From: Giardia intestinalis
Lineage: Eukaryota
NCBI GenBank assembly: GCA_000002435.2
Contig: AACB03000033.1
Direction: 5' to 3' (one strand)
DNA length: 17,765 nt
A program made the position numbers and the translations under genes. Below the pieces are notes generated by a model. The model made no database searches. It was not told the DNA's origin and saw nothing but the letters and a program-made list of their open reading frames with translations. Below are positions 1 through 17,765 of the stretch, one piece after another (within the stretch, counting starts at the first letter, position 1; the number at the start of each line of letters is the position of its first letter).

Positions 1-1834
1 GGAGTGTGCACTGCTTGTAAGAGCAGCTAACGGCCTGTTCAAGAACCCAGTTACACCTCAGAAGCCTGGTAGTGAGTGCATCCTCTGTCATGATGTCAAT
101 GGGGCAGATGGATATACAGGGGTGGCTAACTGCGCACAGTGTACCAAGTCAGACAGTAGTCCAGGACCTGCCACGTGTACAGAGTGCCAAGATGGATACT
201 ACAAGAACTCTCAGACATGTGTCAAATGTAATGAAGCTTGTCTGACCTGCGATGGAAGTGGTCAGAATCATTGTACATCGTGCCCAGAGGGGAAGTACCT
301 GAAGAGTAATCAATGTGTACAAGATACTGGATGCGATGGAAACACTTATGCTGACCCGGAGTCGGGAACATGCAAGGCATGTAGTACGATACACGCAGAG
401 TGCACGGCATGCTCCTTCGACAAGGCCACGGGGAAGCCGAAGTGCACTAACTGCGGGACCAATAAGACCCCCAGGACGGCCCTCGACGGGACATCGACCT
501 GCGTGGCGAAGACGCTTGAAGGATGCGAGGGCGCTGACGAGGCCTTATTTATGAAGGAGGACAAAACGTGTGCTCTTTGTAGTGATGTGACAGATTCAAC
601 TCTTGGTAACGAAGGAAAGGCCAACTGCAAGACATGTACGAAAACAGGAAGTGACAATCCAACCTGCTCAGCCTGTCTCGATGGATACTTCTTTGATAGT
701 GGTACTAGTACATGTACAGACAAGTGTGGTGATAACTGTGCCACATGCTCTGTTGCTGGTGATCCAAATAAGTGTGAAACCTGCAAGACTGGATACTTCT
801 TAGTAACTACTACAGATCAACAGGGGAAGAAGTGCGTCCCATGCGATAGCGTAGACGATAAGGGTCGCGAAGGCTGCAGTGTCTGCTCTAACAACGGTGC
901 TTTCAAGTGCACTGACTGTAAGCCTAACTATCGCAAGGAGGGCAGTACTGGCTCTGTCACATGCACCAAGATCTGTGAAGATGATACTGCCTGTGGAGGA
1001 ACTTCTGGTGCCTGCGATGCAATAGTGATTGATGATAAGGGTGTAGAGCATCATTATTGCTCATACTGTGGAGAAGCTAATACGTATCCTATAGATGGGA
1101 AGTGTAATAGTGCTAAAGCAAATAATCAATGTGATCAAGGTGTATGTACACAATGCACTAACAACTACTTCTTGTATATGGGAGGTTGTTACAAGGTTGA
1201 TACAGTACCTGGACAACATATGTGCAAGACAGCAGCCAACGGTGTCTGTACTGCTGTTAATGCCAACAATAGGTACTTCGTAGTCCCTGGGGCAACCAAT
1301 CAGAATCAGTCTGTATTGGCATGTAGCAACTCCCTTGGCACACTAGTAGGCACTGGTGATACCTCTAAGGCATATGTGGGGGTAGATGGCTGTTCGGCAT
1401 GTACGGCCCCAGCAGCTCCATCTGAGACTGGTATGACTGCTGCTGTGTGTACAGCGTGTACCAACAACAACAAGCCCAACCTGGCTGGGAGCGGGTGCTT
1501 CGCATGTACCGTTGACGGATGCTCGCACTGTGGAGCAGGCGGTAAGTGCGAGGCCTGTACCAGTAAAGACCAGAGGCCGAACACAGACGGAACGAAGTGC
1601 ATCGCCTGCAATATCGACGGGTGCGTCAGGTGCAGCGAGGAGAACAAGTGCGGCCAGTGTGGGGACGACTACAGGCTGGAGGGTGAGGCGTGCGTGTCCA
1701 CCAAGCCCAGCGGGGGCAACAGAAGCGGCCTCAGTACTGGTGCCATAGCAGGGATCTCCGTGGCTGTCATCGCTGTCGTGGGGGGCCTCGTGGGCTTCCT
1801 CTGCTGGTGGTTCGTGTGCAGGGGGAAGGCGTGA
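1..1834 (+). CDS. vsp: VSP-family cysteine-rich surface protein, unit 1 (type A). The 5' end is cut by the window edge and carries a 1-nt insertion frameshift near nt 23, so the upstream frame hits TAA at 28-30. Probable pseudogene or base-call error. The ORF-finder segment 122..1834 is intact.
   Basis: About 11-12% Cys, many CXXC pairs, the GGCY motif (FLYMGGCYKVD), and the C-terminal TM plus CRGKA* tail. Nearly identical to units 3 and 9. Nt 1-20 (GVCTAC) align to units 3 and 9 in frame 1. From nt 32 onward the homologous frame is frame 2. Confidence 0.85.
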   Translation, partial: ECALLVRAANGLFKNPVTPQKPGSECILCHDVNGADGYTGVANCAQCTKSDSSPGPATCTECQDGYYKNSQTCVKCNEACLTCDGSGQNHCTSCPEGKYLKSNQCVQDTGCDGNTYADPESGTCKACSTIHAECTACSFDKATGKPKCTNCGTNKTPRTALDGTSTCVAKTLEGCEGADEALFMKEDKTCALCSDVTDSTLGNEGKANCKTCTKTGSDNPTCSACLDGYFFDSGTSTCTDKCGDNCATCSVAGDPNKCETCKTGYFLVTTTDQQGKKCVPCDSVDDKGREGCSVCSNNGAFKCTDCKPNYRKEGSTGSVTCTKICEDDTACGGTSGACDAIVIDDKGVEHHYCSYCGEANTYPIDGKCNSAKANNQCDQGVCTQCTNNYFLYMGGCYKVDTVPGQHMCKTAANGVCTAVNANNRYFVVPGATNQNQSVLACSNSLGTLVGTGDTSKAYVGVDGCSACTAPAAPSETGMTAAVCTACTNNNKPNLAGSGCFACTVDGCSHCGAGGKCEACTSKDQRPNTDGTKCIACNIDGCVRCSEENKCGQCGDDYRLEGEACVSTKPSGGNRSGLSTGAIAGISVAVIAVVGGLVGFLCWWFVCRGKA

Positions 1835-1891
1835 CTTGGGTAGTGAATGCTGTACAATGGGTGATAGTGTGTGATAGTATGATAGTGGAGT
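1835..1891 (+). repeat. Inter-unit spacer. PolyA signal AGTGAAT at 1842-1848, then about 3 GTGATAG-like repeats (~1861-1885), then the GGAGTGTGATATGCAC box.
   Basis: AGTGAAT lies 7 nt after TGA (Giardia AGTRAAY consensus). The repeats supply TGA/TAG stops in all frames. The long frame of unit 2 opens at 1886, directly after TAG 1883-1885. Confidence 0.8.
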
Positions 1892-16962: not shown

Positions 16963-17019
16963 CTTGGGTAGTGAATGCTGTACAATGGGTGATAGTGTGT
17001 GATAGTATGATAGTGGAGT
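16963..17019 (+). repeat. Inter-unit spacer. PolyA signal 16970-16976. About 3 GTGATAG-like repeats.
   Basis: Copy of the 1835-1891 spacer. TAG 17011-17013, and the frame opens at 17014. Confidence 0.8.
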
Positions 17020-17765
17020 GTGATATGCACACAGGCCAGTAATGGAGTATGCACTGCTTGTAATACAGATAGTCAGTACATATTCCAGAATGGGCAGACA
17101 AGGTGACCCCTGGTGGGGAGTGCATCCTCTGTCATGATGCCACAGGAGCGAATGAGAACAAGGGAGTGGCCAACTGTCTCAAGTGCACGGCACCTGGTGG
17201 CAATACAGGAGCGGCCACGTGCACCGAGTGTCAAGATGGGTACTACATGGACTCTCAGGCATGTACCAAATGTGATGGTACTTGTCTGACCTGTGAGACA
17301 TCGGCGACCCAGTGTACCTCTTGTAAGGGAAATACGTTCCTGAAGGATAATGCATGCGTGAATAGTGATGGATGCACTGGAAACACTTATGCTGACCCTA
17401 TGACAATGACATGCAAGGAGTCTGGTATAGCAGATTGCACCGCGTGTGAGTACAACACGACTGTCAGCAAGCCCCAGTGCACCGCCTGTAACAATAAGAA
17501 GGTGAAGACAGAGCTGGATGGGACAACCACTTGCGTCGATGATGCTGGGTGCGCAACAGATAACGTCGACGGATCCCACTTTCTGAGTGATGATAGCACC
17601 AAGTGCATATTATGCAGTGATACAACAACAGGAACAGAAGCAAACGACAAGGGATTGCTAATTGTAAAACGTGTAAGAAGAACGGAGCCAAGCCGACTGC
17701 TCAGCTTGCCTCGACGGATACTTTGGGTTCTGATACATGCACAGCTTGCGGTGCCAACTGTGCTA
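17020..17765 (+). pseudogene. vsp: VSP-family unit 10 (type B copy of unit 2), 3'-truncated by the window end and disrupted by four 1-nt indels relative to unit 2.
   Basis: Aligns to 1892-2650. A G is missing in the G-run ~17092-17094, which gives a stop at 17104-17106 after 28 codons. A G is missing at ~17651-17653. A C is missing at ~17697. An extra G sits at ~17725-17727. Net frame change is not restored. Confidence 0.7.

Follow-up and report, generated by a model that had tools for sequence, protein, structure and literature searches.

How is a tandem run of genes for variant-specific surface proteins (VSPs) to be read when its members follow each other head to tail with very short spacers: as a set of working genes, as discarded remains, or as a store of sequence for those VSP genes that can be expressed? 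The locus examined here is a stretch of Giardia DNA of 17,765 nt, given as one strand and called the window throughout, whose VSP units were numbered U1 to U10 from the 5′ end. We found ten head-to-tail units on the + strand, eight of them complete and two partial (U1 is cut at its 5′ end and U10 runs off the 3′ end). These units are 5′-truncated pseudo-VSP cassettes and not complete genes, and the window is almost certainly a linear array of VSP pseudogenes (psiVSPs). The explanation that best fits the whole, a psiVSP array whose units recombine and which serves as a reservoir, is given a probability of roughly 65%; for the role of silent cassette reservoir taken by itself the odds are about even.

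The initial annotation had described a ten-unit head-to-tail array, and the count was borne out by nine in-frame ...CRGKA* ends on the + strand (1834, 3718, 5653, 7579, 9380, 11195, 13110, 15036 and 16962) together with one unit that leaves the window at the 3′ end. Pairwise BLASTN of the units gave the type order A/B/A/C/D/E/F/C/A/B along the array, in agreement with the recurrence proposed earlier. U1, U3 and U9 were 98.0–99.8% identical, U2 and U10 99.5%, and U4 and U8 99.3%, while U5, U6 and U7 were separate types; U7 (F) and U6 (E) are chimeras. All eight complete units have open frames, of 579–624 codons. The units are as follows.

1..1834, + strand: U1, type A, 5′-cut by the window; frame open from base 2 to CRGKA*
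1886..3718, + strand: U2, type B, 610 codons from WSVICT to CRGKA*; first in-frame ATG at codon 79
3791..5653, + strand: U3, type A, 620 codons; first in-frame ATG at codon 194
5705..7579, + strand: U4, type C, 624 codons; first in-frame ATG at codon 49
7641..9380, + strand: U5, type D, 579 codons; first in-frame ATG at codon 132
9432..11195, + strand: U6, type E, mosaic, 587 codons, tail WWFICRGKA
11257..13110, + strand: U7, type F, chimera
13162..15036, + strand: U8, type C, 99.3% identity with U4
15100..16962, + strand: U9, type A, 98.0% identity with U3
17014..17765, + strand: U10, type B, cut by the window end; frame broken past codon 27

Four units were scanned against Pfam and matched the VSP family PF03302 with E values of 3e-37 to 4e-44. 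The best database relatives were Giardia VSPs, as the initial annotation had proposed, and not other families; for U5 they came from both WB and P15. Each of the nine open reading frames (ORFs) that end in CRGKA contains 26–32 CXXC motifs, 12–13% Cys and one GGCY. The tail NRSGLSTGA(I/V)AGISVAV..VVGGLVGFLCWWF(V/I)CRGKA, a C-terminal transmembrane segment followed by CRGKA, was present in all nine and is of the G. duodenalis type, which upholds the assignment to Giardia. AGTGAAT begins 7 nt past the stop in 9 of 9 units, so that the whole CXXC, GGCY, tail and AGTGAAT signature first described for the units was recovered. The extended VSP poly(A) signal ACTTRGRTAGTRAAYRY was found at all nine stops (eight exact, one with a single mismatch; 0.07 expected by chance), starting each time on the last base of the stop codon. 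Passages of a 2022 preprint on WB (10.1101/2022.03.07.483299) report this extended signal for VSPs and pVSPs alike.

The units had been called VSP-like genes with the diagnostic VSP signature. Family, tail and poly(A) signal support that wording; the 5′ ends do not. Among the features of a functional VSP, CXXC/PF03302, GGCY, the transmembrane-CRGKA end and the poly(A) signal were found in the units, but a signal peptide (14–17 aa, N-terminal) and an initiator or ATG at the start were not. Every frame opens directly after the stop codons of the spacer, with W-S-(V/E)-I-C-T, and the first in-frame ATG of the units lies at codon 49 to 194. Signal peptides were called by a Kyte-Doolittle heuristic over the 14 residues following each in-frame Met. 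By this measure no hydrophobic leader follows any in-frame Met in any unit, the maximum mean hydropathy being 0.61, compared with 1.8–2.35 for the leaders of six full-length VSPs. The VSP initiator (Inr) PyAATGTT had no match on either strand of the window, where 2.7 matches were expected by chance; it stands at the start codon of 135 of 136 WB VSPs according to parts of 10.1101/2022.03.07.483299. The motif was also not seen near two retrieved non-WB VSP loci (L002 and L003) tried as a positive control, and the initiator criterion stands on the published WB frequencies, not on a control of our own.

Alignment located the truncation within the protein. Residue 1–2 of U2, U4, U5 and U6 aligns with residue 103–106 of P0036, P0030, P0001 and P0016, respectively, which are VSPs of the 700-aa class. 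Missing from the cassettes are thus both the signal peptide and, as far as the first GGCY, the first Cys-rich module; in full-length VSPs these lie upstream of residue ~103. Given that PyAATGTT, a near-start ATG and a hydrophobic leader are all missing, no cassette is predicted to be able to make a surface VSP by itself. Splicing is unlikely to provide a leader, since the window has no copy of the Giardia intron 3′ motif CTRACACACAG, even when one mismatch is permitted. The string ...GCACACAG at the start of U2 and U10 was considered as a splice signal and rejected: it simply encodes ICTQ, and the other units do not share it.

At the position where the cassettes open (*WSEICT), the full-length VSPs P0017, P0032 and P0036 read GGCYKTS(L/Q)WSE(V/I)CT (residues ~100–108). 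Capture of a spacer junction by full-length VSPs, through a change of TAG to CAG or TTG, was considered in this connection. Recent capture is unsupported because the DH gene (L003:6290-6330) has the Ser codon TCT where the cassettes have AGT, and its 5′ region has no nucleotide similarity to the window.

Two further observations concern 5′ ends elsewhere. Partial ‘Giardia duodenalis’ VSPs (P0011, P0034, P0043, P0047, P0050 and ~20 more) all begin at VNDPAGVSIDSLCRP..., and this common start suggests another 5′ truncation point and, there, cassette arrays with a different unit boundary. These proteins are presumably from assemblage B, although the hit table gives no assemblage. A solitary VSP-type gene on a 132-kb Giardia contig (L002:9940-10010; ENA ERZ28528424 NODE_39) has a leader-like FLLIPLFAVSTIA in frame upstream of its called GTG. 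No ATG was seen in the ~100 nt upstream of the called start and no PyAATGTT within 600 nt upstream; perhaps its start codon is mutated, or there is an error in the contig.

The junctions between the units are as regular as their tails. Spacer length was counted from each stop to the point at which the following open frame has its first sense codon. The spacers of 51–78 nt reported at first mix two definitions, the values being 51–72 nt from stop to open frame and 57–78 nt from stop to the first GTG. The spacers are as follows.

1835..1885, + strand: spacer 1, 51 nt; the extended poly(A) signal is followed by GCTGTACAATG and three (N)GTGATAG-type repeats
3719..3790, + strand: spacer 2, 72 nt, the longest; four exact GTGATAG copies
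5654..5704, + strand: spacer 3, 51 nt; identical with spacer 5
7580..7640, + strand: spacer 4, 61 nt; equal to spacer 6 except for two bases of the poly(A) signal
9381..9431, + strand: spacer 5, 51 nt
11196..11256, + strand: spacer 6, 61 nt
13111..13161, + strand: spacer 7, 51 nt
15037..15099, + strand: spacer 8, 63 nt
16963..17013, + strand: spacer 9, 51 nt; identical with spacer 1

The common plan is the poly(A) signal, GCT(G/A)TACAATG, and then 3–6 copies of a 7–10-nt repeat that ends in (G)TGATAG. The window contains 21 exact copies of GTGATAG, all on the + strand and all inside the nine spacers, where 2.9 would be expected in the window by chance. The repeats vary in copy number and have an irregular period, which puts TGA and TAG stops into each of the three frames of the spacers. 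The last repeat of a spacer grades into the start of the cassette (GTGATATGCACA). No description of the GTGATAG repeat was found in the passages of published Giardia VSP work that were available. It may act in frame insulation, be a product of slippage or mark a recombination boundary.

The same plan was met outside the window. An independent metagenome contig from ENA (L001) carries two cassettes with the same junction, a spacer of 56 nt (L001:1875-1930) and flanks ~80% identical to the window. The old WB models that start MLYSDSDS... (P0006, P0031, P0037 and P0121) represent the same type of spacer read in an open frame, from an ATG within the poly(A) signal. For the solitary VSP-type gene of L002, similarity to the window ends right past the poly(A) signal.

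The array had been regarded as a natural substrate for recombination, and the units carry the traces expected of one: mosaic structure, a clean crossover and clustered differences. U7 is of U5 type over 135 consecutive informative sites (11213–11622, upstream spacer included) and then of type A for more than 600 sites. The change takes place within one short interval.

11623..11630, + strand: U5/A crossover interval in U7, inside the 8-nt shared string TATGCTGA (codons of a YAD motif)

U6 is of type C over 153 consecutive informative sites, to ~9783, has a middle part that is unique within the window, and is like type D (U5) from ~10831. Its middle part recurs with different flanks in another WB cassette, P0121. 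U2 has a type-A 3′ module from ~3419 (3419–3718). At the breakpoints, block identity is 99.7–100% on one side and ~50–60% on the other. The differences between close copies are also clustered. The 14 substitutions between U4 and U8 lie at unit positions 18–36, 103–131 and 1854–1866, with an isolated site at 1299. U3 and U9 differ by 31 substitutions, mostly in the spacer and 5′ start and in a patch of ~40 nt (VLNCS in U9, VDGCS in U3), and by a 9-nt spacer indel; the 14 substitutions between U1 and U9 are clustered in a patch. These sharp-breakpoint mosaics and clustered patches therefore indicate that the units exchange sequence within the array by unequal crossing-over and by segmental, short-tract gene conversion.

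The breakpoints of U7 (11623–11630) and U6 (~9783–9800) both lie ~400–435 nt into the unit, at or just before (K/T)YAD codons, which hints at this position as a preferred module boundary.

The reading frames are constrained as well as open. Between unit types, which differ by ~40–50% over most of their length, dS was 0.9–2.8 and dN/dS 0.14–0.34, and 69 of 82 Cys columns were invariant. In a simulation with a 620-codon frame, 5% random substitution left the frame open in 1.75% of trials and 10% in 0 of 2000. Because all units share the truncation point and the type of spacer, the truncated unit is older than the expansion of the array. The protein-constrained divergence must either have been imported from functional VSPs by conversion or have been kept by selection on the cassettes, and both sources would in turn imply exchange with expressible genes.

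Blocks shared with full-length proteins were found in four units. Exact peptide blocks of 271 aa (U4 and P0030), 170 aa (U5 and P0001), 142 aa (U6 and P0016) and 125 aa (U2 and P0061, annotated as ‘High cysteine membrane protein Group 1’) are held in common with full-length WB proteins, and these WB partners are annotated on other large contigs.

The initial annotation had stated that the sequence does not tell the assemblage. Comparison with WB proteins narrows it. Residues 194–620 of U3 are 99.5% identical to WB XP_001705784.1, an old model that starts from an internal ATG, and U6 departs at a single residue from the 245-aa WB fragment XP_001703925.1 and shows 97% identity with ‘VSP S7’, a name that gave no match in the literature search. 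For U2 and U5, the units with a full-length P15 protein among their top five matches, that match reached 59–64%; the DH-isolate VSP P0032 matched at 61–67%. Cys-rich proteins are not identically shared even between WB and DH, according to parts of 10.1101/2022.03.07.483299. Because units match old WB annotations at 99.5%, the window probably comes from assemblage A, and there from WB or an isolate very close to it. It belongs to a known class and is very probably a WB locus that has already been sequenced. None of the window ORFs, including the nine internal-ATG ORFs, had an exact sequence in the protein collection, which fits annotation as pseudogenes or no annotation at all.

Taken together, dS of ~1 or more under constraint, eight intact frames and long shared blocks suggest that the array exchanges sequence with expressible VSP genes. 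The array would then be a silent reservoir of new VSP variants over evolutionary time, while antigenic switching stays epigenetic.

Several points weigh against this reservoir reading. The silence of the array is a prediction from its sequence. VSP switching is held to occur without DNA rearrangement (passages of Adam 2010, PMC2996952), and any reservoir role would be an evolutionary one and not the switching mechanism. In WB, arrays are frequently headed by a complete VSP that has an Inr and is preceded by a non-coding region, as the available parts of the literature describe; here the head lies beyond the window. The sharing with full-length VSPs is known at the protein level only and carries neither direction nor recency of transfer. 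Low dN/dS could be inherited from functional ancestors after recent import, with no use of the cassettes as donors. Copy number and order come from one assembly, and the window ends carry indels.

The alternative that survives best regards the array as a graveyard: a 5′-truncated VSP would have been duplicated in tandem, and the discarded copies would be decaying with no donor role. It is one of the two possibilities set out in the relevant passages of Adam 2010 (PMC2996952), and it would account for the fact that no unit is expressible as a surface protein, as well as for the broken frame of U10 and the insertion in U1. Decay should have closed the interior frames, as 5–10% neutral change does in the simulation, but all eight complete frames are open (579–624 codons) despite ~40–50% divergence between types, dN/dS is 0.14–0.34 and the Cys scaffold is conserved. 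Moreover, the indels are restricted to the two ends of the window and no substitutions accompany them, a pattern that looks more like consensus error than decay. We therefore regard the graveyard as unlikely.

The indels at the ends bear also on whether the regularity of the array is partly an artefact of assembly, with near-identical units (A three to four times, B twice, C twice) mis-ordered, collapsed or expanded and the A-B ends being overlapping copies. Over ~803 bp, U10 differs from U2 by 0 substitutions and four single-base indels (near 17092, 17651, 17697 and 17725), plus a gap column at the end of the alignment. U1 has one extra G near bases 21–23 relative to U3 and U9, and no frame-breaking indel was found in the interior units. 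Single-base indels restricted to the ends are typical of low coverage at the ends of long-read contigs. Their confinement to both window ends suggests that one entire small long-read contig, perhaps unplaced, makes up the window and has a poorer consensus at its ends; real decay at U1 and U10 may be the cause instead. In the first WB assembly, contigs ended at VSP arrays (parts of PMC2996952), and unplaced WB scaffolds that hold VSP pseudogenes only are mentioned in passages of 10.1101/2022.03.07.483299. Against this, the repeated copies are distinct sequences (14 substitutions between U1 and U9; 31, with a 9-nt spacer indel, between U3 and U9), which makes a simple overlap artefact unlikely, and the chimeric units have single clean in-frame breakpoints. 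An assembly artefact is accordingly given a rather small chance.

It is improbable that the array is instead a template for regulatory RNA, transcribed at a low level from one or both strands and acting through the conserved 3′ region in antisense or RNAi-type silencing of VSP mRNAs. Nine copies of a highly conserved 3′ end do occur within 17.8 kb, and most VSPs have more antisense than sense reads, as parts of 10.1101/2022.03.07.483299 report. Long antisense or alternative-frame open frames of 224–369 aa are present as well, on the − strand at 1343–2452, 6942–7859, 14494–15219 and 8957–9631 and on the + strand at 6054–7040 and 13511–14497, and some of them span spacers. They carry no family signal: five had no Pfam match, and the biased codon composition of VSPs is the most likely reason that such frames exist. 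No tRNAs and no Rfam families were found in the window. The sequence gives no specific sign of antisense promoters, and silencing by RNA would leave the kept sense frames and the low dN/dS unexplained.

We consider it just as improbable that the cassettes are actively used donors, with the conserved junction as a recombination boundary and conversion into expressible VSPs during chronic infection or culture. The junction would then be made up of the transmembrane-CRGKA tail, the poly(A) signal, the stop-rich (N)GTGATAG repeats and the WS(V/E)ICT...NGLFKNP start. A boundary of this kind would be likened to the 70-bp repeats of trypanosome VSG cassettes. If true, such donor use would add a recombinational layer to antigenic variation in Giardia, which is now viewed as purely epigenetic.

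That the units are working genes, read from internal ATGs as in the 2007 WB annotation or from a read-through or polycistronic transcript, is hardly credible: old WB models do start at internal Mets (XP_001705784.1 of type A at codon 194; VSP S7/XP_001703925.1 of U6 at codon 49) and each unit has its own poly(A) signal, but no signal peptide follows any internal Met, no Inr occurs anywhere in the window, every frame meets stops in the spacers, models of this kind became psiVSPs in the 2020 WB genome for want of a signal peptide (passages of PMC7000408), and the psiVSPs of G. muris are essentially untranscribed (passages of PMC7641422).

For annotation, the ten units should be labelled pseudo-VSPs and kept outside the expressible VSP repertoire. 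Models from internal ATGs inflated the 2007 WB VSP count, which was 196 compared with 133 after re-annotation, as given in parts of PMC7000408. The idea of a cassette reservoir is already published, and the window adds detail to it, not a new concept. The locus is a compact, clean example of module shuffling among silent cassettes, in which single in-frame crossovers lie at microhomology of 8 nt, conversion tracts are patchy and frames stay open under constraint, and it could be used as a marker set for donation from silent arrays to expressed VSPs.

Among known systems, the silent VSG arrays of Trypanosoma brucei and the vls cassette arrays of Borrelia burgdorferi also consist of promoterless, often incomplete antigen cassettes and yield mosaic products. 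In both, the limits of gene-conversion tracts can be set by conserved flanks, namely a repeat upstream and a 3′ end that is conserved. They differ from the array studied here in that the protein families are unrelated and that conversion into an expression site is the demonstrated mechanism of switching. The parallel would be limited to long-term diversification, for which it is unproven. The comparison with T. brucei is also made in passages of PMC7641422.

The psiVSP arrays of G. muris (Xu 2020, PMC7641422, in part) are closer. They too are tandem (5–23 units) and made of VSP copies without signal peptides, and a role as silent donors, through recombination or gene conversion involving the few intact VSPs, has been suggested for them. 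An array was defined there by more than three units, the other definition in use being two or more adjacent vsp units. The tail in G. muris is GCRGK, whereas all tails here are CRGKA and GCRGK does not occur in them. Furthermore, the G. muris arrays are almost all adjacent to telomeres, a tendency that the same passages describe as not apparent in G. intestinalis.

The closest relatives are the linear or psiVSP arrays of WB. According to passages of Adam 2010 (PMC2996952), these hold over half of the vsp sequences, with a mean spacer of 60 bp and up to 10 members. Downstream members have no Inr and a variable first ATG and are presumed unexpressed, and two proposals were made for them, recombination cassettes or discarded remains. 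Parts of Xu 2020 (PMC7000408) describe WB psiVSPs in arrays without start codons, and parts of 10.1101/2022.03.07.483299 describe arrays of multiple pVSPs. The window shows the same features, namely adjacent head-to-tail units with short spacers, no Inr, start or signal peptide, and a conserved 3′ end, so that the initial annotation was right to count it among the known VSP linear arrays. The accompanying view that it would be a long member of this class does not stand, since arrays of up to 10 were already on record. The likeness extends to the ~60-bp spacers, to close paralogue pairs inside the array and to the evidence of recombination, with no difference in kind. In degree, the repeated units of this window are 98–99.8% identical, compared with 94% for the example pair of 2010 from WB, and its chimeras are very clean.

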